Positions 2,848-60,643 are shown, counted from the stretch's first letter. The stretch: 64,000 nucleotides of DNA from an uncultured Clostridia bacterium (GCA_947626145.1 CANQRB010000006.1:66089-130088); one strand, 5' to 3'. The notes: generated by a model not told the origin, from the letters alone. Made by a program: numbers and translations.

Positions 2848-2998
2848 TTGATTTATGATTTCGTTTATCATTGTCAGCATAAATGTTTGATGGCGGACGC
2901 CCAATGGGCGCCCCTACGGAGTTCAAGTCACGCAGCGGGAACAGTCAAGGTAACTGCAATATTCATTCCTCATTCCTCATTCCTAACTCCTAATTCCG
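2848..2998. repeat. Partial copy of the dispersed intergenic element (70-bp module M1 plus heptamer array)
   Basis: gatttatgatttcgtttatcattgtcagcataaatgtttgatggcggacgcccaatgggcgcccctacgg is followed by attcctc attcctc attccta actccta attcc at 2960-2998, abutting the stop of the topoisomerase B gene. Near-identical copies are at about 5588-5660 and 6440-6509. Confidence 0.6.
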
Positions 2999-3000
2999 CC

Positions 3001-5099: not shown

Positions 5100-5810
5100 A
5101 AAATTAGGAATGAGGAATAAAGTGCGCATAAATTTTATTTGTCATAGGGAATGTTAGACGGTAGGGCGCGACGACTCGGCGCGCCGCAGTGTTAGCGACA
5201 GTAACAATGACAAGAAATAAGCCTTCTCCTTGAGGAGAAGGTGGCGCGTCAGCGACGGATGAGGTGTAGGACGCGAAAGCGTCCGTTAAAATAAACAGAT
5301 AAAAAATAACGCCGCACGGCGGCTACACCTCATCAGTCGGCCTTCGCCGACAGCTTCCCCTTGAGTAAACGCTGATTAAATAACGCCTACGGCTCAGCAC
5401 GACGCCTGACGGCCAAATTTCCCCGATACTGCGTCAAAAATGCTCGAAATACATCAAGTATTTCTGCGCTTTTTTCCTTGTCTCGTGAAAATTATGTCTC
5501 GCCAATCGCCGCACTGTATTTAATCAGTGTTTACTTGAGGGGAAGCCTTTACATTATTTGTCATTTTTACCATAAGATGGCGCAAAGAGTTTTGATTTAT
5601 AATTTCGTTTATCGTTGTTAACATAAACGTTTGATGGCGGACGCCCGATGGGCGCCCCTACGGTATCAAGGTTACGTTTGCGGTTTCGGCGCGCCGGGGT
5701 CGTCGCGCCCTACCGAATATTTGTCATTCATACTTATTGCATAAATTCACATTCCCATGACAAATAAAACCGCCGCACAACCTATTCCTCATTCCTAATT
5801 CCTAATTTTC
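5100..5810. repeat. About 700-bp non-coding element bounded by roughly 90-bp terminal inverted repeats (MITE-like, mosaic)
   Basis: Left end: aaaattaggaatgaggaataaag...ttttatttgtcatagggaatgt...ggtagggcgcgacgactcggcgcgccg (5101-5195). The right end (5690-5808) is its reverse complement, with heptamer arrays at both tips. The interior carries module M1 (5588-5660), GC palindromes (ccttctccttgaggagaagg, ggacgcgaaagcgtcc) and no ORF over 60 aa. Confidence 0.6.
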
Positions 5811-6194: not shown

Positions 6195-6353
6195 GACGGC
6201 ACTCCCCCCTTGAGTAAACTTCCATATTTCAAGTGTTGCCGCCGCGGGCCGTCAATATTCTTTAAAAATATAGTTTGGTAATTTTCGAAAAATGTTGGGG
6301 CAAAATATTGACAAGACACGGAATGTGTGGTATAATCAGGAAAAGACGGAAGA

Positions 6354-6582
6354 GAATGAGGAATTAGGAGTGAGGAATTAGGAATAAAGCGTGCGTCAGT
6401 TTTGTTTGGCGTTTTTACCTTAAGGCCGTATAGGAAAATCCGATTGATAATTTCGTTTATTATCGCCGCCGTAAACGTTTGATGGCGGACGCCCAATGGG
6501 CGCCCCTACGATACCCTGTATTATAACTACCCCACCAATCACCATTTATTCCTCATTCCTCATTCCTAATCCCTAATTTTCC
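6354..6582. repeat. Small inverted-repeat-bounded intergenic element (heptamer array - M1 module - heptamer array)
   Basis: gaatgag gaattag gagtgag gaattag gaataaag (6354-6389) ... M1 copy (6440-6509) ... ttattcc tcattcc tcattcc taatccc taatttt (6546-6582) in inverted orientation. The element ends 15 nt before the hflX RBS. Confidence 0.6.
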
Positions 6583-6598
6583 CAAAGGAGGCACACCC

Positions 6599-7855
6599 AT
6601 GACCGAAAAAACAATCGAACGCGCCATACTCTGCGGCGTACACCGTGATTTGCCGGACAGAACCGAGGACACCACCGACGAAACCATCGCCGAGCTGCGG
6701 GAGCTGGCAAAGACCGCCGGAGCCGAGGTGGTGGGCGTGATGGTGCAGAATAAGGATCACCCCGAAACCGCCGCTTACTTCGGCGAGGGAAAGCTGGAAG
6801 AATTAAAATCAGCCATAGCCGCTCTGGAGGCCGACCTGCTGATCTTCGACGACGAGCTCACCGGCAGTCAGATAAGGAACATCGAGGACATCACCGGCGT
6901 TCGGGTGATAGACCGCAGCACCCTTATTCTGGACATTTTCGCCTCCCGGGCCCGGTCTAAGGAAGGCAAGATACAGGTGGAGCTGGCCCAGCTCAGGTAC
7001 AACCTGCCCCGGCTGACGGGGCTTGGAACTCAGCTCAGCCGTCTGGGCGGCGGCATCGGCACACGCGGCCCCGGCGAAACAAAGCTGGAAAGCGACCGCC
7101 GCCACATTCACCGGCGTATCGAGGCCCTTGAGGAGCAGCTCGCCGAGGTGGAGCGCCACCGGGAGCTGCTGCGCGGGCGGCGCACCAAGGACGGGGCCGT
7201 CACCGCCGCTCTTGTGGGCTACACCAATGCCGGCAAGAGCACCCTTATGAACAAGCTCACCGGCTCGGACATCTTCGCGGCGGATATGCTCTTCGCAACC
7301 TTGGATCCCACCGTCCGCTCCCTTGAGCTTTCCGACGGGCGGAACGCCGTCATTGTGGACACCGTTGGCTTTATACGCAAGCTGCCCCACCATTTGATAA
7401 AGGCCTTCCGCTCCACCTTGGAGGAGGCCGCCGAGGCGGACGTGCTCATTCACGTTATCGACGCTTCCGATCCGGAAATGCAGACCCACATCGCCGTGGC
7501 CGACGACCTGCTGGAGGAGCTGGGCTGCAAGGCCGCCCGCACCGTGGCCGTGTTCAACAAATGCGACATCGCTCCGCCCCTGTCTCCCCGGCCCAGAGGC
7601 CGGTACACCGACTATGTGTCGGTCAGCGCCGCCACCGGCGAGGGGCTCGACCGGCTCATGGAAATTTTGGAGGACGCCCTCCCCGGCAAAAAGCGGGAGG
7701 TCAGTCTGCTCTTCCCCTACTCCGACAGCGGCGAAGCCGCAAGGCTCTACGACACCGAGGTAATTCTTGAGGAGGAGTACACCGACGCCGGAATAAAAAT
7801 GCGTATCCTCGCAGATGAGGCCGTGTACGCAAGGGTCAAAAAGTGGGAAGCGTAA
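6599..7855 (+). CDS. hflX: GTPase HflX
   Basis: N-terminal HflX domain plus G domain GYTNAGKSTLMN, DTVGF and NKCD motifs. RBS AAAGGAGG. Confidence 0.9.
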   Translation: MTEKTIERAILCGVHRDLPDRTEDTTDETIAELRELAKTAGAEVVGVMVQNKDHPETAAYFGEGKLEELKSAIAALEADLLIFDDELTGSQIRNIEDITGVRVIDRSTLILDIFASRARSKEGKIQVELAQLRYNLPRLTGLGTQLSRLGGGIGTRGPGETKLESDRRHIHRRIEALEEQLAEVERHRELLRGRRTKDGAVTAALVGYTNAGKSTLMNKLTGSDIFAADMLFATLDPTVRSLELSDGRNAVIVDTVGFIRKLPHHLIKAFRSTLEEAAEADVLIHVIDASDPEMQTHIAVADDLLEELGCKAARTVAVFNKCDIAPPLSPRPRGRYTDYVSVSAATGEGLDRLMEILEDALPGKKREVSLLFPYSDSGEAARLYDTEVILEEEYTDAGIKMRILADEAVYARVKKWEA

Positions 7856-17206: not shown

Positions 17207-20200
17207 TTATTTTCTTGTCACGCTTTCGGCCTTGGTCACGGGAACGGTCTTATCCACCATCCAGACATAAACTCTTATCTCGGAGCCGGAGGCCGCGGGC
17301 GTAAAGTCGATGCTTATATTCTGCGCAGCGGAGTTTACGGAAACCTTTTTGGACTTCACATTCAGAAGCTTTCCGTCCTCATATTCGGCGGCATAAGCGT
17401 CAACCTCGATGTAATCCTGAGCGTTGTTGAGGACGAAGCTTACCGTACCGTCGGCATATACCGCGTCGGTCACGGCCACCTCGACATTGTTATTTATAAC
17501 GCTGACCTCAACCTCGCCGCTCATGGTTATTTTTTCCTCAACGGCGGGATCGGGATGGCTGAAGGTGACGGAAACGGTGATCCTCGCGCTGCCGGCGGCC
17601 ACGGCTCTGACTTCGGCGGTACCGGCCGAGGCTCCGGCGGTGACATCGGCTATATTCACGTCGCCGCTCAGCCAGTCGGCAGTCTCAACAACATACGAGC
17701 CGTCGGCGGGCAACACTGTTATTCCCACGGTATCGCCGACGTTGGCAATAATGCCGGCGGGTTCAAGAGTGAAACCCAGCTGAGCCTTGTAATCCACGGC
17801 AGTGACGGCTCTGGAGGAACCGATGCTTACGTAGATCGTACCGGCCTGTGCGGTCAGGGCGTCGCCGTCAAGCATTATCCTGAACTGACCGGTGGTTCCG
17901 GCGGGAATAACGACGCTCTCGCTGACGGGGTCGGTCATTTCCCTGTCGGAATAGAAGGTGACAGTGTCATACTCCTGAAGGTTCACGCCGTCCACGTCAA
18001 CATAGGCGTAATCCGCCTCGGGAAGGTTGTAGATAACGGCCTTTGCCTCACGGACGTTGGGTGTGAGGCTGACCTTCACGGTTCCGCTGACCGTCTTGTA
18101 GTTGAGGTCGTCGGGAACGAAGGTCCAGCCGTAATCGGTATCGGCCTCGGCAACTATCTGCTCGGGGGCCTGATCTCCCACGCTGTTCCAGGTGAGGGCG
18201 CCGCCCAGAGCGCCGCCGTTCACGTCGGTGAAGCCGTTGGTAAGCACGGACTCGGCCAGGAAGGAGCCCTCCTCCACATCAGAGGCGGTGACCTCGCCGG
18301 CGGGAGCCGCCTGCTCAATTATCATGGTTCCCGTTACGGTGTTGCCGGCCAAAGCCGCCGTCTCGGGTACGCTTACCCGATAGTCATAGCTTCCGGCGTT
18401 CACGGGAGCGTCCTTCGACCAGCCTTCGGCGACTGCGGGCTCGCTGACAACAGCCATGATCATCGCCTCATCCGCCTGAACGTCCACGCTGTGGATCCTG
18501 TACTCGACGGTCACGTCCGCCCTGGCGTCGGTTGCGGCGGTGACGGTCTTGGCCTTGCCGTCATAAACAAGGCTTTCCGGCAGGGTTATGTTCAGAGCGG
18601 CGGGAATCTTGTTGCTGGCCGTTACCGAGGTATATCCGGTAACGGGAGAATTGTAGTTATCCGTGTCGCCGGGAGTGAATATCCACTCGTAGTTATAAGC
18701 GCCCTCACTGAGAACCGTTTCGGGCTGAGCCCATACAAGGGTTCCTTCCACGGCGGCGTGGTTGTTGGGATTTTCAAAGGTACCGGCGAGGGTGTCAACG
18801 GAGGCAAGAGTGTTGCCCGTAAGGCCGTTGCCCGCGCTGACGTTGACCTTGGCGGGAGTGGCCTTTGTTACCGTCACTTCACCGGTCACCGTGCCTATAT
18901 CGTAGTTCGAGCCGGCCAAAGCGGCGGCGGTGACGGCATAGCTGCCGGCGGCGGCGGTTTCGGCCGCGCCCTCGCTGGAAAGTCCGGCCTTGATGTCGGC
19001 CTTGGTCTCACCGGCGACAAGCGGGGTATCCGGGGAAACCTCAAAGTCGCTGTCGGTGAGGGTCAGGGTCTGACCGTACTCCTTTTCGGCGGAGGCGGTC
19101 AAATTAACCGTTCTCCTGTTTATATCGCCTGTGGTATGATGGGTATGGGCGGCCAGAGTGTAGTTGGCGGCGTCCCTGCCGGTGAGAGAATCAGCGGCGA
19201 CGGTCACGGTAACATTCTTGGCCGTACCGGCGGCAGCATTTTCGTAAACCGCTGTCACGGCGGAGGCGGGAATGCTTACCTCATCGCCCTCCACAAGGTT
19301 GCCCACGGCAACGGAGCCTCCGAGCAGGGCCTCCGCCGTGCCGTCATAGGTCTTGGGCGCAACGGCTATGGCGCTGTAATCGGGCTCAACGGCCAGGGGA
19401 AGGATGTTGAGGGTGGTGTACATCAGGCCGGGAGCAAACTCGTCGGTGGCCTCAATATAGGCCCGAACACTGTAAACACCGGCATCGACGGGCTCGTCGG
19501 ATACCCAATCCTCAGTGCCCTCGGGGGCGTATTTTACGGTTATCTCACCGTCTCTGTCGGCGGTGAACTTTATCCGCTTGGGCCGGCCGTCATAGACGAA
19601 CTTCATATCTTCATCGGTGAGCTTATTGAAGTTGGTGGGCGTCTTGTCGGACACGATTATGCTCACGGTATCGCCGGTCACCTTTTCGTAATTGACCTCA
19701 TCGGCGGGAGTGAATACATAAGCGGCCTGATAATTGCCCTTTTCGCTGTATGACCTGTCAGGCTCGGCCCAGGTAAACTCGCCGTCCACATGAGCCTCGG
19801 TATACGGGTTCTTGTAGTGGCCGGATATCTTTGACTGCGACAGGGCAACCTCGGTCCTTATACCTGTGGCGTCAGCCTCGACCTTGACGGGAACCGTCTT
19901 TTCGACAGTAACGCCGGCGGCAGTCTTACCGTCCAGGGTCACGGAGTAGTTGCTGTTGGCGGTGGCGTCAAGGGTATAGGGATATGCCCCGTCCTTTACC
20001 GCCGCGCCGGGAGCAAAGCCCTCGCTGCCAAAGGTTATCTTCAATTCATCGTTGGGAACGTCCTTATCGTTGGCGAAGCTCACATCGGCGGAGGTCTTTG
20101 TCTCGCCGTAGAACTTGGTCATGCCAACGGGGGTGACCGTCACGGGCATGGGATCAATATTGGCGGTCAGGGTAAACGCGGCGGCCTTTGACATTGAGTA

Positions 20201-23200
20201 GTTGCCGCTGCCGTCTCCCGTGAGAGAGTAGGCGGGCACGGTGACATTGACCGTCTTGTTTTGTCCGGCGTTTACGTCGCTGAACAGGGCCGAAATCTTT
20301 TCGCCGTCGATTGAAACGGCATCGCCCTCTGCCTTATTGGTTATGGCTATCTCACCGCTGAGAGAAACGGTATTGGCGCCGTCATAGGTTTTATTTGCGG
20401 CGGCGAGAGTGCCCTTGTCAAGGGTGACCTCAAGGGGATTGATAACAAGCTTGGCCTCGGTGGAATGGCCCAAATAATCGGGATTCGGGGCTATAGTGGC
20501 CCTTACACGGTAGGTACCGGCATTGACGGGAGGCTCATTGGTCCAGTTTTCGGTGCCTTCGGGGGCATATTCAACGGTTATTTCTCCCTCCCGACTGGCC
20601 TCGACGCTGACCGCCTTGGCCTTGCCGTCATAGGTCTGCTCCGGCAGAGAGACGGTGACGGTTGTAGGCGCCCGGTCACTGACGGTTACGGAAGCGGTAC
20701 GGGTCACGGTCATGGTCTTTTCGGCGGAATCGGGATCGGGATGCTTAAACACAGTTTCGACCATAAGGGTCGCCCGACCGGAGTCAAGGCCGGAGACAAC
20801 GGCGCTTTCGCCGCTTCCCTCAACGGAAACACAATCCTCGTCAACTATCCACTTCGAGCTGACTATCTCGTAATCGCTGTCGGATCTGATCAGCTTCACA
20901 TCGGTAGTCTCCTGAGGCTTGACGGTGATCTCGACGGGATCAATGCTGAAGTCCACCTCATTCTTATACTTTACGGTCTCCCACTTTGTGGAGCCCTCGA
21001 TGCGGGCATATACTTCTCCGGCGGAGGCGGCAAGCGCGTCGGGATCGAGAGCTATCCTCACCCTGCCGCTCATATCCCGGGTTATATGTACCTCGCGGCA
21101 TACGGGATCGTCGGGCTCGGCGGCGATCACGCCGCCCTGGTTGTTCACACTGTATTTATAGAAGGCTACAACGTCGCCGACCTTCAGGTTCTCGCCGTCA
21201 ACGTTGACATAGGCGTAGTTGCCGTCGTCGCCGGGAAGGTTGTAAACAACGGTGTCCTTAGGCGCCCGGGTGAGGGTGACGCTGACTCTGGCGGTACCCG
21301 TAACGCTGCGGTAGTTTTCCGACGTGGGCAGGAATACCCAGGTGTAATCCACATCGGGTCTTACGGTTACCTGATTGGGCTGTCTTTCGCCGTAGGGCAT
21401 CCAGCCGAGCTTACCGTCAACGGCAGTTCCGTCCACGCCCGTGAAGGTGCCGCTCAGCAAGGCCATATCCAAGGTCTGGCCGGTCTCGACACCGGCGGCC
21501 GTAACCTCTGCGGCGGCCTTGGGCTCGGCGGGGGAAATGTTAAGCACGGCGGTGGTGGAGTTGGCGGCATAATCACCGTCCGCGGCAACGTCTATCTTAA
21601 CAAGGTAGTTGCCCGCATCCACGGGAGCGTCGGCTGTCCAGCCGGCCGCACCGGCAGGAGCGGAGGCTCCGCCCTCAAATGAAGGCTGCTCCTGTCCCTC
21701 GTCGTGAGGCGCGGCGTCGGTCTTCTGATACTGTACGGTAACGGCTCCGCCTGAGTTTGTCGTTGCGGTAACGACCTTTTGCCTGCCGTCGTATACCCGA
21801 TTTTCGGGGAGCTGTACGGTAATCGACGCGGGCTCCTTGGCCACGCCGGTAACCGTCACGCTGCCCTCACGGGAGGTGTAGTTGTGCTGATCTTCGGGAA
21901 TGAACTCCCACTCGTATACATTGGCGCCCTGCTTTATTTCGGTTTCGGGCTGCTTCCAATGGAGGTCGCCCTTGACCTCGTTCCTGGTGTAGGGGTTCTC
22001 AAAGGTGGCGCTCAGCGTAACGGAGGAAAGGGGCTTGCCCTCCTTGCCGTCGGTGACGGCCACGTTATCCCTTACCAGTCCGGGAGTGGCCTGCTTTACG
22101 ATGACCTTGCCGGCCCCGCCCTGGAAGCCATTTCTCACATAGTTGCTGGTGGGGGCGGTGTCGCCCTTTATTTCGTACTCGCCCACCTCGGCGTCAACGG
22201 CGGCGCCGGCGCTGGTGAGCACCATCTTTACGTCTTCCTTGGTTTCGCCTTCGACAAGGTGGCCCACGGATATATCAAAGTCCTCATGGTCAAAAATTAT
22301 GTATTCGCCATAGAATTTTTCCTTGTCCGGAACGGTAAAGGTCAGGGGCAGAGGAACGATGGTCGCCTCGGCGTGATGAACCATGTCGTGAGGAATGATA
22401 TAGTTTGCCGCCTGAGCGCCCTCGAGGGCGTTCGCCGCATGGAGCGTCAATTCAAGCGTCTGCTTGCCGGCGTTGGGGTGCAGGAATTCGGCGGTCACAT
22501 TGGCCCGCTTTATCCTGACGTCGTCCGCGACGCTCTTGCCGTCCACCGTCCTGTAATACCTGTAATATACCTCAACGGGTGTGAGGGCGATGTTGGCGTT
22601 GGTTCTGCCGTTGTATGCCTTCTGCGAAACGGGGGTGGGGTGCCACAGGAACTGGGTCAATTCCCTCTGACGGATGGTCAGATTGGCCACGCCTGTGCCC
22701 TCGGCATAGCCCCCTTCGCTCCCGATATAGGCTATGACGTCATAGCTGCCGGCGTCGATGGGTTCCTCTGTGCTCCACTCTTCCGTGGAGCTGTGGAGCC
22801 TGTAGCGCACGGTGATCTCACCCTCGCGGTCGGCCTGGAAGCGCACGCCGTGGGGCTTTGCGTCATACATGAGATCCAGTTTTTGTCCGGGAACAACCGT
22901 GACAAGAGTAGGAGTGCCGCTGGAAACGGTCACCGTCACCGCATCCTCAACGGTCTTATAGTTTTGTGTGTCCGTGGGGGTAAATATGTAGGGCTCGACA
23001 AAGGTGCCCTCCGAGCTCATTTTTTTGTCTCCGTCCTTCCACTTGAAGGTTCCGTGAACGGGCTCGTCCGTATATCTGTTGACAAATTTTGCCGTAATTA
23101 CGGACTCGGAGAGCTTCTGGCCCACGGCTATGCCGGAGGTGCTCTCCGACGCAACCATTGGTTCGGACTGGGTGACGGTGACGACGGGCTTGTCGCTTTC

Positions 23201-39876: not shown

Positions 39877-39954
<78 letters not shown>

Positions 39955-40739: not shown

Positions 40740-41468
40740 TTATACATCCGCCTCGTCGCTTGCCACGAAGCGTCCGTGACGCTTGCCGCCAAAGCCGCGA
40801 AGGTCACCGCTCTCAATCTTGGCAATTATCTCGTCATATTGCTCCTGTGTCAGCTCGCCGGAGGCAAGCTTCTCATCCAGCTTTGTTTTGGCGTTCTCCG
40901 CCATCTCGGCTTTCTGCTCCTCGGTCAGTTCGGGCCTTTCGCCCATGATGCCGTGACGCTTGCCGCCGAAGCCGCGAAGGTCGCCGCTATCGATCTTGGC
41001 AATTATCTCGTCATACTGCTCCTGTGTCAGCTCGCCGGAGGCAAGCTTCTCGTCAAGAGCCGCCTTGGCGTTCTCCGCCATCTCGGCCTTCTGCTCCTCG
41101 GTCAATTCGGGCTTCTGTATTCTTTCGGCCTTAACGGCTCCCTCGGGGAGCTCGGGCCTTTCGCCCATAATGCCGTGACGCTTGCCGCCGAAGCCGCGAA
41201 GATCGCCGCTCTCGATCCTGGCAATTATCTCATCGTACTGCTCTTGTGTCAGCTCGCCGGAGGCAAGCTTCTCATCCAGCTTTGTTTTGGCGTTCTCCGC
41301 CATCTCGGCTTTCTGCTCCTCGGTCAGTTCGGGCTTCTGTATTCTTTCGGCCTTGACCGCGGCGGGGCTGAGCTTTGTCGCCGGAACGCTGTCGGCGGCA
41401 ATTACGGGTACGGCGGCCAGCATGAGAGCCGACATCGCCGCTGTGAGTTTAATTGAGATCCTGTTCAT
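40740..41468 (-). CDS. Secreted protein with three tandem ~65-aa SHOCT-like repeats
   Basis: Signal peptide. The unit ELTEEQKAEMAENAKxKLDEKLASGELTQEQYDEIIAKIESGDLRGFGGKRHG occurs three times, with about 200-bp DNA period. AGGAGGT RBS. The + strand ORF 40404..41456 is antisense. Confidence 0.55.
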   Translation of the reverse strand: MNRISIKLTAAMSALMLAAVPVIAADSVPATKLSPAAVKAERIQKPELTEEQKAEMAENAKTKLDEKLASGELTQEQYDEIIARIESGDLRGFGGKRHGIMGERPELPEGAVKAERIQKPELTEEQKAEMAENAKAALDEKLASGELTQEQYDEIIAKIDSGDLRGFGGKRHGIMGERPELTEEQKAEMAENAKTKLDEKLASGELTQEQYDEIIAKIESGDLRGFGGKRHGRFVASDEADV

Positions 41469-44417: not shown

Positions 44418-44597
44418 TCACTAATAAAAAACTCATAATGTAATCTGGAGGCACGGGGGCTGTCAAAAAAATCGTGCAGAACGGACGAAAATCAGCCCGC
44501 ACAGGCGGCCCCTGCCGCCGAGCAGGCCCTCCCGACGGCGTACACAGGTACGCCGAGGGTGATTTTCGTTCGTAGTTCAAGGGCATAAAATAAAAAG

Positions 44598-44636
44598 AAA
44601 ATCCGCCTTTTTCCCGTAAAAAGGCGGATTTTCTAC
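44598..44636. terminator. Bidirectional terminator between truA and the convergent ArsR-like gene
   Basis: aaatccgccttttt-cccgtaa-aaaggcggatttt. Confidence 0.6.
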
Positions 44637-44744
44637 ATCAATTCATAGTTTTAATTTTATTGCAAAGCCTTTCATAACACAGATTTGGTCTAAATTAAAC
44701 CTTCCCGCCCCTGAACGGTCTGCGCCATTTTTTACAGTCCTGTT

Positions 44745-50812: not shown

Positions 50813-50899
50813 GCCGATGTGATGGAATTGGTAGACGTAGTGGACTCAAAATCCACCGGTAGCGATACCGTGCCGGTTCGAGTCCGGCCATCGGCACCA
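50813..50899 (+). tRNA. tRNA-Leu (anticodon CAA)
   Basis: gccgatgtgatggaattggtagacgtagtggactCAAaatccaccggtagcgataccgtgccggttcgagtccggccatcggcacca: long variable arm and encoded CCA. Confidence 0.85.
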
Positions 50900-50902
50900 G
50901 CG

Positions 50903-50941
50903 TCGGAGCAGAGGTTAGCCATGCTCCGGCCTTTCTTTTTG
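50903..50941 (+). terminator. Terminator after tRNA-Leu
   Basis: cggagca-gaggttagccat-gctccgg-cctttcttttt. Confidence 0.5.
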
Positions 50942-50993
50942 TCTGTCACGGTTATTTACCGCGGACAACCCTTCACAAAGGACTGACTTTTGT

Positions 50994-52184
50994 ATGAATA
51001 AAATTTCCAAATCCACCGCCGCCCTTCTCGCAGTCTGCTTTCTGTGCCTGGCCGGCGCCCTCGGACTGGTGTGCTCTCTGATTTTCCGAGGCCCCATAGA
51101 CACGGCCACCGCCCAGGACACCCCCGCTCCGCCGGAAGCGCCCGCAGCGGTAACCATTGAAATAGCGGCGGTCGGCGACAATCTGATGCATATGCCGCTC
51201 ATCAAAAGCGGACGGACGGACACGGGCTACAACTTTGACGGCTTTTATCAAAATATAAAAGCCCGCCTGGCGGACGCGGACATCAGGGCTGTAAATCAGG
51301 AGACCGTGTTCATAAACGACCCCTCGCGGTACAGCGGCTATCCCAGCTTCGGCGGACCGACGGCAGTGGGCGAAAGTCTGGTCAGGGCGGGTTTCAACGT
51401 CATAGAGCAGGCCTCCAACCACTCTTACGACATGGGGCAGGACGGCCTGAGGGACACAATGGAGTTCTGGCACGGCCAGCCGGTGACCCTGCTGGGCGTC
51501 AACGACAGCCCCGAGGCGGCCCTGCGGGTGGACAAGTTCGTCAAGGACGGCTTCACGGTGGCGCTGATGAACTACACCTACGGCCTGAACGGCTACGTTC
51601 TGCCCTCGGGCAGTGAGCATCTGGTTAACGTCCTCAGCGATGAGGCCCGGCCCGCCATCGCGGAGCAGATCGCTCGCGCCAAGGCCGAAAGCGACATGGT
51701 GGTGCTCTTTCCGCACTGGGGCACGGAGTACGACACCGAGCCGGACGAATACCAGCGGGACTGGCTGAAATTCTTTAACGAAAACGGCGTAGACCTGATA
51801 ATCGGCGCCCATCCTCACGTGGTTCAGCCCGTGGAGGACTATGTGGGGGAGACCGGATACAGGACGGTGGTGTTCTATTCCCTCGGCAACTTCATTTCCA
51901 ATCAGGACTCGGTCGTGAAGGAGCTTGGCGGCGTGGCCAGAGCCACCCTTGTCAAGGACAAAAACGGCTGCCGGATCGAAAAATACTCCCTCGAGCCATG
52001 CTTCACCCACGTTTCCGGCGGAAAATACACGGTCTATATGCTGGACGACTACACCGACGAGCTGGCCCGCACCCACTCCAAGTACGGCGGCAGCCTGACG
52101 GTGGAACGGATAAGGAAGACCTTTGACGACATAGTGAACGTGCCGGAGGAGGCTCCGGCCGAAGCACAGGAAGAGGCCGCATAA
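50994..52184 (+). CDS. CapA/PgsA-family metallophosphatase-fold protein (poly-gamma-glutamate capsule biosynthesis-like), secreted or membrane-anchored
   Basis: N-terminal hydrophobic segment. Motifs VGDNLMH, ASNHSYD, HWGTEY and GAHPHVVQ. Confidence 0.7.
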   Translation: MNKISKSTAALLAVCFLCLAGALGLVCSLIFRGPIDTATAQDTPAPPEAPAAVTIEIAAVGDNLMHMPLIKSGRTDTGYNFDGFYQNIKARLADADIRAVNQETVFINDPSRYSGYPSFGGPTAVGESLVRAGFNVIEQASNHSYDMGQDGLRDTMEFWHGQPVTLLGVNDSPEAALRVDKFVKDGFTVALMNYTYGLNGYVLPSGSEHLVNVLSDEARPAIAEQIARAKAESDMVVLFPHWGTEYDTEPDEYQRDWLKFFNENGVDLIIGAHPHVVQPVEDYVGETGYRTVVFYSLGNFISNQDSVVKELGGVARATLVKDKNGCRIEKYSLEPCFTHVSGGKYTVYMLDDYTDELARTHSKYGGSLTVERIRKTFDDIVNVPEEAPAEAQEEAA

Positions 52185-52224
52185 TCGGCGTTTATAGTTA
52201 AAACCATCAATACGCAGGTTTGTC

Positions 52225-52605
52225 GTTGTTAACGTAAACCGTACAGCGGCGCGCCGGGGTCGTCGCGCCCTACCGTGGTATTTGTCATTGTTACTAAGGT
52301 ATGTAAATGCCGCACGGTTAAGGCTTCCCCTGGAGGGGAAGCTGTCGGCGAAGGCCGACTGATGAGGTGTAGCCGCTGTGCGGCGTCAGTGTATACGTTA
52401 TGTTTAATTTTATAACGGATGCTTCGCATCCTACACCTCATCCGGCCCTGCGGGCCACCTTCCCCTCGAGGGGAAGGCTTTTGCATCGTCTGTCGTTGTT
52501 AACATAAACCGTACAGAGGCGCGCCGGGGTCGTCGCGCCCTACCGTGATATTTGTCATTGTTGCTAAAGTATGTAACTGCCGCATATTAAAGGCTTCCCT
52601 TTCAA
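52225..52605. repeat. Intergenic repeat block: two ~100-bp direct repeats sharing modules with the 5100-5810 element, plus perfect GC palindromes
   Basis: gtcgttgttaacRtaaaccgtacagMggcgcgccggggtcgtcgcgccctaccgtgRtatttgtcattgtt occurs at about 52230-52310 and 52490-52570. Palindromes ggcttcccctggaggggaagc, ccttcccctcgaggggaagg and gatgcttcgcatc. Also ggccgactgatgaggtgtagccgc, which is the reverse complement of a segment at about 5330. Confidence 0.6.
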
Positions 52606-52622
52606 TGGGGAAGCCTTTAATA

Positions 52623-53870
52623 CTATAACTTAAATAACTCACGTCTTACGGCGTCAAGGGCGTTGAGCACGGTACGCACTCTCACCCGCTGACGGTCGCC
52701 GGAGAGGTTCAGCTTCACCGTCCGGACGCCCAGCTCGGAGGCCAGGCCCACATACACCAGTCCCACGGGCTTTTCCGGCGTTCCGCCGCCCGGCCCGGCA
52801 ATTCCTGTGACAGCCACGGCGATGTCCGCCCCGCTGACACGTCTGGCTCCGGCGGCCATTTCCGCCGCCGTTTCGGGACTGACGGCCCCGTGAGCCGCAA
52901 GGGTCTCCCGCCGGACGCCCAGAATTTGCTCCTTGGCCTCGTTGGCGTAGGTGATAAAGCCGAAGCCGTAAACCTCGCTGGCGCCGGGCACGGAGGTTAT
53001 GGCCGAGCCTATCATGCCGCCGGTGCAGCTCTCCGCCGTGGCGAGGGTCTTATTTTTTTGCCTTAGCAGCTCCACCACGGTACCGGCCATGGTTGCGCCG
53101 TCGCCCTCGGCGTAAATTTTGTCGCCAAATTCCCGATACATCCGCTCCGCAACGGGAGCCAGCAGCCTTTCGCCCTCTTCGGGACTGTTTGCCATGGCCG
53201 TTATGCGGAAGGTGACCTCGCCCTCCTTGGCGTAGGGGGCCACGGTGGGATTGGTCTGGTTTTTTATCAGGTCGTCGATCTGAAGGGCCGCCGCGCTCTC
53301 TCCTATTCCAAAGACACGCAGCACTCTTGAGTACAGGCCGACGCCGCTGAGCCTGCGGAGAAAGGGCTCCGCCCCGTTCAGAAACATGGGCTCCATCTCC
53401 CTCGGCGGGCCGGGGAGGAGGACGGCGGTCTTTCCGTCCTTTTCAAAGATGCAGCCCGGCGCGGTGCCGTTGTCGTTGGGGAGTATAATTCCGTCGCCCT
53501 CCGCCGGCAGATATGCCTGCTTCAGGTTGTTTTCGGGCATTGACTTATCCCAGCCCCTGATATAGGCCCGCATTTTGTCCACGCTGGGTTGGTGGAGCTT
53601 CAGCTCCGCGCCGAAAAGCTCCGCCACGGTTTCCTTGGTCAGGTCGTCGTCGGTGGGCCCAAGCCCGCCGGTGAACACAACAACGTCGCAGCGGCTTAAC
53701 GCAAGCTCCGCAGCGTCCCGCAGCCGCCGGGGATTGTCCCCAACCACGGTCTGGCGCAGAACGCTTATCCCCAGTCCGGTCAATCTTTCCGCCAGAAATC
53801 GGGCGTTGGTGTTCAACGTCTGCCCCATGAGCAGCTCCGTCCCCACGGCGATTATTTCGGCTGTGAGCAT
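52623..53870 (-). CDS. cinA: Competence/damage-inducible protein CinA (NMN amidohydrolase PncC domain)
   Basis: N-terminal MoCF-binding-like domain (IIAVGTELLMGQ) and a C-terminal CinA domain. Start at the internal ATG with GAGGAG RBS, 4 nt after the thiI stop. Confidence 0.85.
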   Translation of the reverse strand: MLTAEIIAVGTELLMGQTLNTNARFLAERLTGLGISVLRQTVVGDNPRRLRDAAELALSRCDVVVFTGGLGPTDDDLTKETVAELFGAELKLHQPSVDKMRAYIRGWDKSMPENNLKQAYLPAEGDGIILPNDNGTAPGCIFEKDGKTAVLLPGPPREMEPMFLNGAEPFLRRLSGVGLYSRVLRVFGIGESAAALQIDDLIKNQTNPTVAPYAKEGEVTFRITAMANSPEEGERLLAPVAERMYREFGDKIYAEGDGATMAGTVVELLRQKNKTLATAESCTGGMIGSAITSVPGASEVYGFGFITYANEAKEQILGVRRETLAAHGAVSPETAAEMAAGARRVSGADIAVAVTGIAGPGGGTPEKPVGLVYVGLASELGVRTVKLNLSGDRQRVRVRTVLNALDAVRRELFKL

Positions 53871-53874
53871 ATTA

Positions 53875-55059
53875 TCACTCCTCGCTCTCAATAACTTCCC
53901 ACTGAGCTTCCTCAACCGCCTTGTTCACCCAATATTCCATGTCAAGCCTGTTCTGGCTCTCCAAAATTTTCGCCAAAGCGGGCTTGGTGGTGGGATGCTT
54001 TGGCACGAACACCGTGCAGCAGTCCTCATAGGGCAGTATGGAGGTCTCGTAAGTGCCTATCTTTCGGGCAACCGTGACTATCTCGTCCTTGTCCATGCCT
54101 ATCAGGGGCCGGAACACGGGTATGTCCCCGGCGGCCTCGTCGGTGACGGCCAGGGCATGTATGGTCTGGCTGGCCACCTGACCCAGGCTCTCGCCGGTGA
54201 TGAGGGCAAGGCTGCCGCTCTTTTTCGCCAGACGGGCGGCTATCATCATCATCATGCGCCGCATTATGAGGGTCAAATGCTCCTCGGGGCAGTTGTCGCG
54301 AATGGCAAGCTGCTGCTGGGTGAAGGGCACGATGTAAAGGTTGTACCGCCCCACGTAGCCCGCCAGTATTCGGGCCAGCTCCACGACCTTTTCCTTGGCG
54401 CGCTCGCTTGTATACGGGGGGCTGGCAAAGTGGACGGCGCAGAGCTCCACGCCCCGCTTGGCCATCATGTAGCCCGCCACGGGACTGTCGATGCCGCCGC
54501 TGAGCAGCAGGGCCGCCCGGCCGTTGCTGCCGGTGGGCATTCCGCCCGGGCCGCTGACCCGGGCGATGTCGGCGTAGACGTAGGCCTCCCTGTCCCGTAT
54601 CTCCACCCTGACTATTGTGTCGGGCTGAGTGACGTTCACCTTCAAATGGCGGCACCGGCGCAGAACCGCGCCCCCCATCTCACGGCTGATGGCCGGAGAA
54701 TCAAAGGGGAACTGCTTGTCGCTGCGTTTTGCCTCCACCTTGAAGGTGGACACGGTTTCCATCGCCGGAGCCAGATACTCCGGCCCCTCTTTCAATATAA
54801 CGTCCATATCCTTGGGGAAAACTCCGGCCCGGGCGATAAACACAATGCCGAATACCTTTTGCAGCCTTTTTATCATTCCGTCCACGTCAGCGCCCTCGGC
54901 GGGTTCCACATAGGTGATGGCCTGGGACTTGCGGACGCAGCTCCAGCTGTCCTTCGGCAGGGCCTTTTTGATATTGCCGACGAGCAGATCCTCAAAGTGG
55001 CTGCGGTTAAGGCCCTTGAGTATTATTTCTCCATACTTTATGAGAAGTATCTCTTTCAT
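53875..55059 (-). CDS. thiI: tRNA 4-thiouridine synthase ThiI
   Basis: THUMP domain plus PP-loop SGGIDSPVA. Confidence 0.9.
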   Translation of the reverse strand: MKEILLIKYGEIILKGLNRSHFEDLLVGNIKKALPKDSWSCVRKSQAITYVEPAEGADVDGMIKRLQKVFGIVFIARAGVFPKDMDVILKEGPEYLAPAMETVSTFKVEAKRSDKQFPFDSPAISREMGGAVLRRCRHLKVNVTQPDTIVRVEIRDREAYVYADIARVSGPGGMPTGSNGRAALLLSGGIDSPVAGYMMAKRGVELCAVHFASPPYTSERAKEKVVELARILAGYVGRYNLYIVPFTQQQLAIRDNCPEEHLTLIMRRMMMMIAARLAKKSGSLALITGESLGQVASQTIHALAVTDEAAGDIPVFRPLIGMDKDEIVTVARKIGTYETSILPYEDCCTVFVPKHPTTKPALAKILESQNRLDMEYWVNKAVEEAQWEVIESEE

Positions 55060-57042: not shown

Positions 57043-58827
57043 TTACGCAAGTTCGTACTGGCTCGTACACAGCGCATAGTATCTGCCCTTTTGGGCCATA
57101 AGCTCCTCGTGGGTGCCGCTTTCCACAATTTGGCCGCCGTCGATGAACATAATGTTGTCCGCGCCCCGTATGGTGGACAGCCGGTGGGCTATCACAAAGC
57201 TGGTGCGCCCCTTGAGCAGCCGGGCAAGGCCGGTCTGGAGGGCCTGCTCGGTGCGGGTGTCGATGGAGGCCGTGGCCTCGTCCAGTATGAGAATTTTCGG
57301 GTCGGCGAGGAGCGCCCTCGCAAAGGAGATGAGCTGGCGCTGGCCCACGCTGAGACGGCTGCCCCGCTCGTTAACCTCGGTGTAGTAGCCGTTTTCAAGG
57401 GTCTGGATGAAGTCGTGGGCGCAGACGGTCTTTGCCGCGGCTATGACCTCCTCGTCGGTGGCATCCAGCCGGCCGTAGCGGATGTTGTCCATGACCGTGC
57501 CGCTGAAAATGAAGGTATCCTGAAGCATTACGCCCACCTGCGACCGCAGGGAGTGCAGAGTGTAGCGGGTGATGTTCTCCCCGTCGATGAGAATTTCGCC
57601 TCCCTGTATGTCATAGAACCGGCTCAGGAGGTTGATTATTGTGGTCTTGCCCGCTCCGGTGGGGCCCACGACGGCGATGTTTTTGCCCCGCTCAACGGAA
57701 AAGCTGAGGCCCTTGAGGATGTTCACGCCCTCCTCGTAGGCGAAGGTGACGTCCTTAAAGTCCACGTCGCCCTTTATGGGCGGCATCTCCACCGCTCCGG
57801 GCAGATTCTCCACAGTGGCGGGGGTGTCCATGACCTCAAAAATGCGCTCGAGGTAGGCGGCGGTGTTGATGAGCTGGTTATAGTAGTTGCACAGGGACAG
57901 CACCGGCGTCCAGAACAGGTTTACATAACCCACAAAGGCCACAAGGGTACCGGCGGTTATGCCGCCGCCCCCGAGGAGGTCGGCCCCGCCCACAAGGAAC
58001 ACCACGCAGGTGGTTATGGTGGATATGGTCTCCACCATGGGCCAGTTGCATATGTCGATTATCTTCGCCCGCATAAAGCTGGTGCGGACGTTCTCGCACT
58101 GGGTCTCGAAAATGCGCTGGTTTTCCTTTTCACGGCTGAAGGATTGGGTCACCTTTATGCCGCAGATGCTCTCGTGGATGTAGGCGTTGAGGTTGCTCTG
58201 CTTGGCGCTGTAATCCTGCCACACCCGGCGTTGCTTGTTCTTCATGGCGAAGATTATGCCGCCGAACACAAACACGCCGCAGAGGGTGATAAGGCTGAGC
58301 TTAAGGCTCAGGGTGAACATCAGGCCCATGGTAATAACGACGGTGAAAAGGTCGGTTATCAGGTTGATAAGGCCGCCGGTGAGCAGGTTGTTTATGGAGT
58401 TTACATAATTTATTACCCGCACCAAAATCTTGCCGTGGGGGCGGCTGTCGTAAAAGTCAAAGGGCAGTATCTGCAGGTGCTTGAAAATGTCCCGCCGCAG
58501 GTTGGCCACAAGGCTCTGTCCCACCTTGACGAGGGTCACCATGCGGAATTTCACGATTATGGCGTTGATGAGGTAGATTGCCACCAAAATCCCGCCCAAA
58601 ATCAGTATTCCCTTAAGATCTCCGGCGGGCAGGCGGTTGTCGATGGCCTCGCGGGTTATCATGGGTGCCAGCATATTCAGCAGGCTGGTCACCAGCATGA
58701 GGCCCACGGTGGCGAACATCAGCCACTTAAAGGGAACGAGGTAACGGGCCAGCCGCTTTATGTGGTCGAAGCTGAAGCTGCTTTCCAGCTTTTCGTCCAC
58801 GTCGAATTTATTCCTTGCCATCAGCAA
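57043..58827 (-). CDS. ABC exporter, fused permease/ATPase (half of heterodimer)
   Basis: 6 TM helices, Walker A GPTGAGKTT, signature LSVGQRQ and Walker B ILILDEATAS. Confidence 0.85.
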   Translation of the reverse strand: MLMARNKFDVDEKLESSFSFDHIKRLARYLVPFKWLMFATVGLMLVTSLLNMLAPMITREAIDNRLPAGDLKGILILGGILVAIYLINAIIVKFRMVTLVKVGQSLVANLRRDIFKHLQILPFDFYDSRPHGKILVRVINYVNSINNLLTGGLINLITDLFTVVITMGLMFTLSLKLSLITLCGVFVFGGIIFAMKNKQRRVWQDYSAKQSNLNAYIHESICGIKVTQSFSREKENQRIFETQCENVRTSFMRAKIIDICNWPMVETISTITTCVVFLVGGADLLGGGGITAGTLVAFVGYVNLFWTPVLSLCNYYNQLINTAAYLERIFEVMDTPATVENLPGAVEMPPIKGDVDFKDVTFAYEEGVNILKGLSFSVERGKNIAVVGPTGAGKTTIINLLSRFYDIQGGEILIDGENITRYTLHSLRSQVGVMLQDTFIFSGTVMDNIRYGRLDATDEEVIAAAKTVCAHDFIQTLENGYYTEVNERGSRLSVGQRQLISFARALLADPKILILDEATASIDTRTEQALQTGLARLLKGRTSFVIAHRLSTIRGADNIMFIDGGQIVESGTHEELMAQKGRYYALCTSQYELA

Positions 58828-60584
58828 ACGCCCCCTTTCACGGCTTCGGCTATGGCGGCGTCAAAGTTGCCGTACTGGGTGTCAAAGACCTCTTTGTACC
58901 TTCCGCCCAGAGCCAAAAGCTCCTCGTGGGTGCCCCGCTCGGCTATGCGCCCCTTTTCCATTACCAAAATCTGGTCAGCGTCCTTTACGGCGCTTATCCG
59001 GTGGGCGATTATGAAGGTGGTGCGTCCGGCGGAGAATTTTTTCAGCGTCTGCTGTATGTAATGCTCGGTTTCCATGTCCACACTGCTGGTGGTGTCGTCG
59101 AGAATGAGTATTGACGGATTTTTCAGTATGGCACGGGCAAGGGCTATGCGCTGCTTCTGCCCGCCGCTGAGGCCCACGCCCCGCTCGCCGATTATGGTGT
59201 CGTAGCCCTCGGGCATAGAGCGGATAAAGCCGTCGGCGTCGGCCATCTTCGCCGCCTCCACCACCTGCTCAAAGGGGGCGTCGGGGGCGCCGTAGGCGAT
59301 ATTGCCCTCGATAGTGTCGGAGAACAGGAAAATATCCTGCATGGCTATTGAAATACTCTGGCGCAGCGCCCGCAAATTCAGGTGCCGCACGTCGATGCCG
59401 TCCACAAGCACCTGCCCCTCGGTGGCGTCGTAAAAGCGGCAGATGAGGTTGGTCAGGGTGGACTTGCCGCTGCCGGTCTCGCCGATAATAGCCACGGTCT
59501 GGCCGGGCACGGCGGTAAAGCTGACGTGGTCGAGAACCTGTTCCTCCCCGTAGGAGAAGCTCACGTCCTTAAATTCCACTTTTCCGTCGAAGCTTTCCTT
59601 TTCCACATGGTTCTTTTCGGTGTGGATGCGGGGGCGTTCAAGGGTAAATTCCATTATTTTTTCGCCGCTGGCGATGGCGTTAAGGCTGTCGTTGATGAGC
59701 CAGCCCACGTTGCGCATGGGTGTGTTCAGGGCCCAGCTCATGGAGTTGAAGGTGACGAACTCGCCGGGGGTCATGTGCCCCCTTATTACCATTATTCCGC
59801 CGGCCACCAGCACTACCACGTTAAGGGAGTTGGCCAGAGTGTCAAGGATGGGTATGTAACGCTGGCCGATGCGGTTGGAGGCGATGTTGGCGTCACGGTA
59901 CTCCAGATTGGCCTTGTCGAACTTCTCCAGCTCGTAGTCCTCCCGGGCGAAGGCCCGAACCACACGGTTGCCGGAGATGTTCTCCTGAACGACGGTATTC
60001 AAACCGCTCAGCTTCTGCCTGGCGTTGCGGAAGGCGGGGCCCACGCGCCGGCCCATGGCCACGGCGAAAAAGGCGATGAGGGGCGTCACCGCCAGCAGGC
60101 ACAGGGTCAGCCGCCAGTTGATGAAGCCAAGAATAAACAGGGCCGAAAGGAAAAGGCAGGAGTTTTCAAGTATGCCGTTCAGCACCCAGGCCACGAAGTG
60201 GCGGACGCTGTCGATATCGCCGCTTAGGCGGTTCATGATGTCGCCGGTGCGGTTGTGGTCAAAAAAGTCAAAGTCCAGCTTGTGGAGGGACTTGTACAGG
60301 GCCACCCGTATGTTGTACACCACCTTCTGGCTGGTGCCCTCAAGTATGTAGTGGTCGATGATGCGGAATATGTCCTTTAAAACTATGGACAAAAACATCA
60401 GCACCACCAGAATGAGCAGCCGGTTCCGCATACCGTTGTAGAACACGTCGTCGATTATCCGGCCCGAAAGGTAGGGGCGGATGTTGCTAAGCACCGTGTT
60501 GATCATGGTCAGGCTCAGGGCGAAGATCATCCGGCCCATATAGGGGCGGATATACACGGAAAATAGCCATTTCAGGGTTTTCAT
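58821..60584 (-). CDS. ABC exporter, fused permease/ATPase (partner half)
   Basis: Walker A GETGSGKST, signature LSGGQKQR. 7-nt overlap with its partner. Confidence 0.85.
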   Translation of the reverse strand: MKTLKWLFSVYIRPYMGRMIFALSLTMINTVLSNIRPYLSGRIIDDVFYNGMRNRLLILVVLMFLSIVLKDIFRIIDHYILEGTSQKVVYNIRVALYKSLHKLDFDFFDHNRTGDIMNRLSGDIDSVRHFVAWVLNGILENSCLFLSALFILGFINWRLTLCLLAVTPLIAFFAVAMGRRVGPAFRNARQKLSGLNTVVQENISGNRVVRAFAREDYELEKFDKANLEYRDANIASNRIGQRYIPILDTLANSLNVVVLVAGGIMVIRGHMTPGEFVTFNSMSWALNTPMRNVGWLINDSLNAIASGEKIMEFTLERPRIHTEKNHVEKESFDGKVEFKDVSFSYGEEQVLDHVSFTAVPGQTVAIIGETGSGKSTLTNLICRFYDATEGQVLVDGIDVRHLNLRALRQSISIAMQDIFLFSDTIEGNIAYGAPDAPFEQVVEAAKMADADGFIRSMPEGYDTIIGERGVGLSGGQKQRIALARAILKNPSILILDDTTSSVDMETEHYIQQTLKKFSAGRTTFIIAHRISAVKDADQILVMEKGRIAERGTHEELLALGGRYKEVFDTQYGNFDAAIAEAVKGGVC

Positions 60585-60609
60585 GGGAAAAATCAGATCC
60601 TTTGACGTA

Positions 60610-60643
60610 GAATTAGGAATTAGGAATGAGGAATGAGGAATAC
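60610..60643. repeat. Solitary heptamer array (GGAATKA)x5
   Basis: gaatta ggaatta ggaatga ggaatga ggaatac, between the NTase stop and the ABC exporter start. Confidence 0.55.

Follow-up and report, generated by a model that had tools for sequence, protein, structure and literature searches.

The 438 bases at positions 52185–52622 of a 64,000-nt stretch of DNA from an uncultured Clostridia bacterium (GCA_947626145.1, CANQRB010000006.1:66089–130088; the whole stretch is hereafter the window) lie between the stop codons of two convergent genes, a PGA_cap (CapA-like) gene on the plus strand and cinA on the minus strand. This gap is very likely a mosaic of dispersed repeats of the repetitive extragenic palindromic (REP) type. 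The fuller explanation that we prefer is probable, if less secure: the gap is a REP mosaic resembling the bacterial interspersed mosaic elements (BIMEs) of Escherichia coli, it belongs to a dispersed, modular family of uncultured Oscillospiraceae that is probably mobilized by a REP-associated tyrosine transposase (RAYT), and its hairpins double as 3′-end elements or terminators. Judged on its own, mobilization by a RAYT appears to have about an even chance of being right. An earlier note on this DNA, made from the sequence alone, had placed duplicated modules and palindromes between a capA-like gene and cinA, and the domain matches of the two genes agree with it (Table 1).

The gap carries a 28-mer, GGCGCGCCGGGGTCGTCGCGCCCTACCG, of which the window holds exactly three copies (at 5688, 52248 and 52518; none is expected from 100 shuffles), together with a fourth that has a 1-nt deletion and lies on the opposite strand (5159–5185). 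Both gap copies are followed by TATTTGTCATT, in agreement with the earlier note, which had seen the same module at the right end of the element at 5100–5810. Read on the minus strand, the 28-mer is cgGTAG + GGCGCG-a-CG-acCC-CG-g-CGCGCC, that is, a GTAG tag and a hairpin with a 6-bp stem, a 1×1 mismatch, 2 more base pairs and a 4-nt loop. We named this unit REP-A. In the window GTAG precedes a REP-A hairpin at 52273(−), 52543(−), 5161(+) and 5713(−), a density of 4 copies in 64 kb. GTAG precedes other hairpins at 52369(+), 52434(−) and 5266(+); these belong to REP-C, which consists of GAGGTGTAG and a short hairpin (window sites 5266, 52369 and 52434). A third GTAG-hairpin family, REP-B, reads GTAGgggCGCCCattGGGCGtcc (window sites 2917, 5661 and 6509). 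The tag lies immediately 5′ of the stem in all four REP-A copies, in three REP-B copies and in the REP-C units. Published REPs have stems of 5–13 bp, loops of 2–20 nt and GTAG (or GTGG) 0–2 nt 5′ of the palindrome; REP-A has the tag and the hairpin, and its stem and loop sizes fall in this range.

Several lines of evidence support REP-A as a unit of the REP type. First, 18 distinct REP-A-like sequences, taken from the loci described below and from RAYT-like genes, align unambiguously, with GTAG invariant in all of them. All 8 stem pairs are kept in all 18 variants (all 138 cells pair) and 5 of the 8 are changed on both sides, a count that is biased by the use of a perfect 6-bp outer stem as the criterion for selecting variants. 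The covarying stems include GGCGCG/CGCGCC, GGAGCG/CGCTCC, GGCGGG/CCCGCC and GGGCCG/CGGCCC, and neither a shuffle nor a slid register comes close to the observed covariation. The inner two pairs, which lie outside the selection criterion, are CG:CG, with CT:AG in one lineage.

Second, mismatches avoid the hairpin. The two repeat copies in the gap differ at 11 positions; the 28-nt core is free of differences, and all 11 fall within the 84 positions of the flanks (P = 0.035 under random placement). Across 12 aligned A modules the core is 99% conserved compared with 65% for the flanks. Because mismatches are confined to the flanks in this way, the core is either constrained or homogenized.

Third, REP-A is dispersed. 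A scan with the 28-mer pattern, using one genome per species and a variable loop length, returned 22 loci in 11 species-representative assemblies, 9 of them labelled Oscillospiraceae, Clostridia or Colidextribacter, 1 Verrucomicrobia and 1 ‘uncultured bacterium’. A metagenome-assembled genome (MAG) of a sister species, Lapin-021__bin62, whose syntenic blocks are 83–94% (elsewhere given as 87–93%) identical to the window, holds at least 15 copies on 11 contigs. When the gap was compared by BLAST with these loci, the core (52247–52275) was matched everywhere, the extended A module (52220–52295) in many sister-genome copies, and the whole palindromic C composite of the gap (Table 1) in four loci (L007, L013, L015 and L023) at 72–79%. 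In other species REP-A forms inverted doublets 20–70 nt apart (L010, L014, L016, L018 and L019), like those of REP doublets forming hairpins (REPINs). Viral contigs gave no REP-A match, and there is no sign of a phage origin. The earlier note had proposed a dispersed modular family and had named module sharing limited to the window as what would point to a local duplication; the 28-mer pattern extends over 11 species, and both the A module and the composite recur in the sister species.

Some observations on these loci stand apart. The assembly labelled Verrucomicrobia (a UBA3841 MAG) has an exact REP-A copy in coding-like sequence (L004 7647–7674), which could reflect an error of binning or labelling, an intragenic REP or horizontal transfer. 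Other Oscillospiraceae loci (L009, L014, L016, L020, L024 and others) contain further families of GTAGGG plus a perfect hairpin, for example GTAGGGGCGGCCCCATGTGGCCGCCC and GTAGGGGAGGGGCCTGCCCCTCCC, often as inverted doublets adjoining REP-A. Several of the retrieved contigs end at or near the repeats or the genes that flank them.

That the gap is just a segmental duplication of local origin or an artefact of assembly, unconnected with any dispersed family, is scarcely credible, and for the family as a whole the local reading is already refuted: modules occur in 22 genome loci and in 4 metagenome contigs that share the alpha arm of the C composite. What speaks for a local origin is the 24-nt linker of each repeat (52296–52319 and 52566–52589), seen only at this locus: in the BLAST comparison of the gap with the retrieved loci neither linker was covered by any other locus, and a 28-nt box-plus-linker pattern (52279–52306) had no match in metagenome contigs. 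A separate 2.6-kb metagenome contig (L001) is identical to the gap locus base for base, which argues against mis-assembly, its low coverage of 3.4× being the point on the other side. The flanks of the two repeat copies are, moreover, about 13% diverged, so the duplication is not recent.

The anatomy of the gap can be written, with < and > for orientation, as A<, linker, P1, C>, spacer, C<, P2, A<, linker, P3, where P denotes palindromes of the GGCTTCCCC..GGGGAAGCC type, of which there are three (Table 1). The two direct repeats reported by the earlier note as about 100 bp long are present; its word ‘tandemly’ holds for their duplication and not for their placement, as they start 270 nt apart and are not head to tail. 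Tandem Repeats Finder reported nothing in the gap because there are just 1.4 copies of this 270-nt period. In copy 1 the REP-A hairpin is flanked by the boxes TTGTCGTTGTTAAC (52220–52233) and TATTTGTCATTGTTAC (52279–52294). Between the REP-A units, the alpha arm of the C composite consists of P1, a hairpin, GATGAGGTGTAG and a second hairpin; after an AT-rich spacer, the beta arm follows the same plan in reverse complement and differs from the alpha arm in its second hairpin and in P2. Sister-genome C composites always pair one alpha arm with one beta arm, and in their consensus fold the central stem is invariant while the small local hairpins covary. The earlier note called two of the palindromes perfect: CCTTCCCCTCGAGGGGAAGG (P2) is, and GGCTTCCCCTGGAGGGGAAGC (P1) has a non-palindromic 4-nt centre, TGGA. 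P3 was absent from its list. It also reported a segment with its reverse complement near 5330, and the 24-mer GGCCGACTGATGAGGTGTAGCCGC at 52353–52376 is indeed the exact reverse complement of 5319–5342, within a longer alignment of 5158–5361 to the reverse complement of 52334–52546 (79.5% over 215 nt).

Table 1. Positions of the features in and around the gap (window coordinates unless a locus number is given)
Feature	Position	Strand	Basis or remark
PGA_cap (CapA-like) gene	50994–52184	+	PF09587, E = 4.7e-60; 3′ end borders the mosaic
Direct repeat copy 1 (A module + 24-nt linker + left arm of P palindrome)	52218–52329	+	Self-comparison, 112 nt, 90% identity
REP-A unit 1	52248–52275	−	Hairpin recovered in whole-region folds; stem covariation; identical to internal repeats of RAYT-like genes
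Linker TAAGGTATGTAAATGCCGCACGGT	52296–52319	+	Common only to the second copy (52566–52589)
C composite, palindromic, 161 nt	52320–52480		Inverted repeats in self-comparison; consensus structure with covarying local hairpins
Palindrome P1, GGCTTCCCCTGGAGGGGAAGC = GGCTTCCCC-TGGA-GGGGAAGC	52322–52342		8-bp stem, 4-nt loop
Alpha-arm hairpin GTCGGC-GAAG-GCCGAC	52344–52359		Pairs 28–33 with 38–43 covary between arm types
REP-C unit 1: GATGAGGTGTAG, then hairpin CCGC-TGT-GCGG	52361–52385	+	Inverted-repeat comparison; arm present in 4 metagenome contigs
AT-rich spacer between REP-C units	52386–52417		Length and sequence vary between copies
REP-C unit 2, inverted: hairpin GATGC-TTC-GCATC, then CTACACCTCATC	52418–52442	−	Minus strand reads GATGAGGTGTAG + hairpin
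Beta-arm hairpin GGCCC-TGC-GGGCC	52444–52456		Fold and consensus structure
Palindrome P2, CCTTCCCCTCGAGGGGAAGG, perfect 20-mer, then CTTTTGC	52458–52477		Terminator-like for the plus-strand gene (flagged in terminator scan)
Direct repeat copy 2 (A module + linker + left arm of P3)	52488–52599	+	Self-comparison
REP-A unit 2	52518–52545	−	Sequence and orientation as unit 1
Palindrome P3, TATTAAAGGCTTCCC-tttcaatg-GGGAAGCCTTTAATA	52585–52622		15-bp arms, 8-nt loop; abuts cinA stop codon
cinA	52623–53915	−	MoCF_biosynth, CinA_KH and CinA domains; 3′ end borders the mosaic; stop codon 52623–52625
Related composite	5100–5810		Heptamer array, REP-A (+), P, REP-C pair, P with nested insert, REP-B (−), REP-A (−), heptamer array
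RAYT-like genes with internal REP pair	L002 2312–2854(−); L024 10001–10501; L025 10001–10522; L026 10001–10501; L036 157–657; L037 3401–3907		

The homology of the direct repeats ends inside P loops. A P loop is also interrupted in the related composite, by a 175-nt insert at 5363–5537 whose terminal inverted repeats are TAAACGCTGATTAAATA / TATTTAATCAGTGTTTA and which comes with a duplicated TTGAG; L023 has this GCTTCCCC..GGGGAAGC palindrome unbroken at the orthologous site. From these two facts, palindrome loops look like preferred points of breakage or insertion, a property reported for REPs (cited in PMC3733652). With its terminal repeats and target-site duplication, the insert fits the definition of a MITE (miniature transposable element bounded by inverted repeats), and no other copy was found in the sequences examined.

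The mosaic sits at the 3′ ends of two convergent genes, and its hairpins would for this reason be transcribed at the ends of both, P3 serving cinA and P2 the capA-like gene. REPs between convergent genes have been proposed to act as terminators or 3′-end protectors (PMC3733652), and P2 and P3 probably do so too, to judge from their sequence and position; P3 is probably a bidirectional terminator with weak T tracts, and it was not flagged by a strict terminator scan. Testing for RNA secondary structure, as the earlier note had suggested, gave a clear result: whether taken as DNA or as the RNA of either strand, the whole gap folds far more strongly than its shuffled versions (z = −7.7 to −9.7). 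Such folding, the covariation of the local hairpins, the site between convergent gene ends, P3 abutting the cinA stop and CTTTTGC after P2 would also be expected if the hairpins were primarily host RNA elements (intrinsic terminators, 3′-UTR (untranslated region) stabilizers or a small RNA) kept by selection, their likeness arising by convergence or by reuse through gene conversion. We consider this improbable as the primary explanation. The elements fold equally on both strands and are found in both orientations, as palindromes at the DNA level should be; units also lie in a 5′ UTR and between tandem genes; content turns over fast at orthologous sites; and the identical sequence occurs inside a gene of a transposase family. 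Rfam at its gathering threshold found two tRNAs in the window and no family in the gap, and a search of 52100–52700 at E up to 10 found nothing meaningful. A host RNA role can coexist with a REP mosaic.

Other identities were tried and dropped. The CUGAUGAG string in the composite is without the GAAA core of a hammerhead and matches no hammerhead model, and readings as an integron attC site, as CRISPR or as a ribozyme have no defining motif or partner gene. An 85-aa open reading frame (ORF) with no Pfam match lies inside the mosaic.

The repeat family is modular, and different loci carry different combinations of modules, as the earlier note had anticipated. With H for arrays of a heptamer, the module orders found by pattern annotation include H> A> H<; H> P C> C< P H<; H> P C> C< P A< H<; H> A> P C> P H<; and H> B< H<. 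They differ even at an orthologous site: between window 6353–6580 and L023 6559–6806 the arrays are kept, with a REP-B module between them in the window and a C composite of the 161-nt type in L023. A perfect TTGACA-17-TATAAT promoter lies just upstream of the window element (about 6309–6337), and this probably places the element within the 5′ UTR of the gene at 6599.

The arrays consist of 2–8 units (GGAATGA / GGAATTA and variants). They form the inverted ends of most composites, occur also as solo arrays, and were seen only in the window (2965–2997, 5100–5118, 5784–5809, 6353–6385, 6548–6573 and 60609–60641) and in the sister species (nine loci of its MAG). One of them provides the stop codon of a gene ending at 5802. 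The gap has none, even with 2 mismatches allowed, in agreement with the earlier note, and among the sequences examined it is the sole multi-module cluster without an array at either end.

These arrays suggest another origin for the gap, as a copy, decayed and lacking its ends, of a larger miniature transposable element whose true ends are inverted (GGAATGA/GGAATTA)n arrays, moved by some other transposase or recombinase with REP-A, P and REP-C as passengers. Inverted arrays bound most clusters in the window and the sister genome, and the order P, C>, C<, P, A< in 52320–52545 is that of the array-bounded L013 5954–6345. In 9 of the 12 aligned A modules an array follows 20–110 nt after REP-A; both gap copies are among the 3 exceptions, with a P palindrome where the array would be. 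We nevertheless regard this origin as unlikely, since REP-A occurs without arrays in 10 other species and conservation is much higher in its core than in the remainder of the unit. The different cargo between kept arrays at the orthologous site indicates that modules and arrays are separable, and we found neither a target-site duplication nor an array-bounded coding element.

Part of the evidence for the preferred explanation, a REP mosaic served by a RAYT, is a gene. Exactly 1 of the 22 REP-A loci is inside a RAYT-like ORF, in the sister species (L002, Table 1). Its 166–180-aa protein has an HUH motif (NHVHIL) and a Y...NP motif (YIDKNP), and a profile of the protein family gives E = 5e-10 against 4ER8, the structure of E. 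coli TnpAREP; these motifs and this homology place it with the RAYT/TnpAREP proteins. The match to Pfam Y1_Tnp is weak (20 bits, below the cut-off of 23). The reading frame holds two inverted REP-A copies (26–28 nt), GTAG outward, which enclose the HUH-coding part at a distance of 183 nt from each other; they translate as TVGRDDPGAPE and NYGAPRSSRPTV (peptide types VGRDDPGAP and GAPRSSRPT).

This arrangement recurs. The RAYT-like family comprises 1830 clusters at E ≤ 1e-10; 40 of its members, when aligned, all have the V-G and P-T residues for which GTAGG and CCTAC code. Within genes the internal pair covaries (40 homologues): segments of the same protein are compatible with 23–26 complementary bases of 26, as against about 20–22 for segments from different proteins. 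Six genes on different loci have the inverted pair in their DNA, 168–183 nt apart, with stem changes on both arms and with proteins 49–70% identical to that of L002. In the 70%-identical orthologue (L036), which comes from the same sample series as the contig matching the window, the first internal REP is identical to the REP-A of the gap. The possibility that intergenic REP-A copies are relics of RAYT pseudogenes was ruled out, their flanks having no match in a tblastn search of the window. More boldly, a Clostridia-centred branch of RAYT-like genes, coextensive with these clusters, may keep its cognate REP pair in its own frame, around the HUH segment, and the REP-A units of the gap may be the genomic offspring of such an ‘inside-out REPtron’; we offer this tentatively, its chances being somewhat below even.

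In L002 the RAYT-like gene lies between a T-box leader (Rfam RF00230, 109 bits; 2852–3093(−)) and a gene with a 2-isopropylmalate synthase-like start, and its transcription is probably controlled by the T-box. Around the L036 orthologue, too, there is leader-like sequence upstream and the same gene downstream. In the L037/L038 lineage the gene lies between genes with SMC and SRP54 (FtsY-like) domains.

These elements suggest how the mosaic could have formed. A RAYT-type Y1/HUH enzyme, whose source gene carries two inverted REP-A copies, would recognize GTAG and the hairpin on DNA that is single-stranded during replication, and would cut and rejoin it, thereby spreading or homogenizing REP units. 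The known enzyme, TnpAREP, requires GTAG plus a folded hairpin in single-stranded DNA (PMC8266576; PDB 4ER8, PMC3479197), and GTAG REPs occur in clusters, for the most part in gaps separating convergent or unidirectional genes, and have a link to RAYTs (PMC3733652). The mosaic would then grow by insertion and unequal exchange at palindrome loops, and in the present layout ‘A module + linker + palindrome arm’ may have been duplicated long ago across the composite. Of all this, the anatomy, the dispersal, the covariation of the hairpins and their identity with the repeats inside RAYT-like genes are observed; movement by a RAYT, the route of duplication and the role in termination are inferred.

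Several observations weigh against this account, beside the bias in the covariation count noted above. The protein of L002 scores 62 bits (E = 4e-17) against NCBIfam NF047646, REP_Tyr_transpos (‘REP-associated tyrosine transposase’), below its cut-off of 80. A tblastn search of the 64-kb window found no RAYT homologue, the matches being to 9-residue peptides encoded by REPs, and the presence of a RAYT in this genome is inferred from two related genomes. Outside the sister species, the strict pattern matches only 1–3 times in each of the other 10 of 11 species, and several genomes contain the RAYT-like gene, internal pair included, with no extra copies within 14–20 kb; among four other genomes checked, L025 alone has extra REP copies near the gene. 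Because some genomes carry gene and pair without nearby copies, dispersal appears to be lineage-specific and the internal pair alone does not predict it. The REP-A units of the gap are direct repeats, where a REPIN would be expected to have an inverted doublet. REP-A in this genus is mostly inside a larger unit that ends in heptamer arrays and is possibly mobilized otherwise. Finally, the terminator role is read from the sequence only, and the T tracts of P3 are weak.

The surroundings of the gap are themselves variable. A tRNA–capA block (window 50813–52184, compared with L028–L031) has other neighbours in each of the relatives examined; after it comes an inverted DUF711 gene in L028, which is 91% identical, while elsewhere it is a gene with a Cu_amine_oxidN1 domain or a cation-efflux gene. 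Because capA has different neighbours in each relative, the mosaic lies at a synteny breakpoint. The capA–cinA gene order is not kept in relatives, hence there is no empty-site comparison for this locus.

The window holds other repeats. One of them, dispersed and about 200 nt long, has no relation to the REP modules and occurs at 44440–44640, in L021 (4405–4600) and in L028 (2540–2830, reverse); it ends in a strong terminator-like palindrome, AAAATCCGCCTTTTT..AAAAAGGCGGATTTT, and has no Rfam match at the gathering threshold. Self-comparison of the window further showed internal tandem repeats within 791–1321, a repeat of about 180 nt at 40774–41360 near a tRNA gene at 39877, and two pairs of diverged paralogous segments of about 59–62% identity (17911–22282 and 57049–59579).

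To our knowledge, the biology of REPs, REPINs and BIMEs has been worked out almost entirely in Proteobacteria. The present locus carries the same logic of GTAG-tagged hairpins, mosaics at gene ends and a RAYT-family partner into uncultured gut Oscillospiraceae and, if the tentative inside-out reading is correct, would be the first REP/BIME system described in Gram-positive gut anaerobes. A RAYT-like gene with an internal REP pair offers a concrete and testable pair of enzyme and substrate; on that same inside-out reading, the enzyme could act on its own gene or be regulated through it. Group 1 RAYTs have been noted in Clostridia, with analysis of flanking 16-mers only (Bertels 2017); those without flanking repeats, in Clostridia among others, have no known substrate, and our finding suggests looking inside the gene. 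For the annotation of MAGs, such repeats break assemblies and can be misread as short spurious ORFs, and the differing content of such gaps in sister species marks these sites as rearrangement hotspots.

Among known systems, the closest are the GTAG REPs and REPINs (Nunvar 2010; Bertels & Rainey 2011; Di Nocera 2013, PMC3733652). The gap family shares with them the 5′ GTAG tag and G+C-rich hairpin, dispersed and apparently mostly intergenic copies with frequent clusters, inverted doublets, a covarying stem and a sequence link to a gene of the RAYT family. It differs from the GTAG REPs surveyed in its host, a Gram-positive anaerobe (Oscillospiraceae); the survey (PMC3733652) makes no mention of Firmicutes or Clostridia. 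It also differs in the direct orientation of the gap REP-A units, 270 nt apart, and, in this genus, in the embedding of the unit in a 76-nt module with TGTCAT-type boxes. The REPIN layout is nevertheless found in the inverted REP-C pair of the gap (52361–52385 and 52418–52442) and in REP-A doublets elsewhere.

The earlier note had likened the family to E. coli BIMEs. The likeness holds in that the gap is a mosaic of several palindromic unit types, GTAG-tagged hairpins among them, and linkers at gene 3′ ends, in combinations that differ by locus. It fails for a strict E. coli-type BIME: the REP-A units are direct, regular alternation in the orientation of REP units is absent, the linker is peculiar to this locus, and REP-A, REP-C, P and the linkers are unrelated in sequence. 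The RAYT-like genes resemble REPtrons (Ton-Hoang 2012; Messing 2012, PDB 4ER8; Corneloup 2021, PMC8266576), in which a Y1/HUH protein homologous to TnpAREP is tied to an inverted pair of the genome’s REP. Unlike REPtrons, where REPs flank the gene, the pair here lies inside the reading frame, 168–183 nt apart, and encodes two protein loops; we found no description of such a gene in the literature searched.

The gap is also similar to palindrome-associated elements derived from insertion sequences of the IS200/IS605 type and to MITEs, being small, non-coding and hairpin-rich, presumably with single-stranded DNA intermediates, and having a nested insertion with target duplication in a nearby palindrome loop. 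Unlike IS200/IS605 elements, it shows no pair of left-end and right-end subterminal hairpins around tnpA or tnpB, and no IS200-type TnpA was seen; unlike MITEs, it lacks terminal inverted repeats and its own target duplication, and it has no heptamer arrays. Set beside these systems, the locus is ordinary for a REP cluster, and what is unexpected is the host group and the REP pair that the RAYT gene carries in frame.

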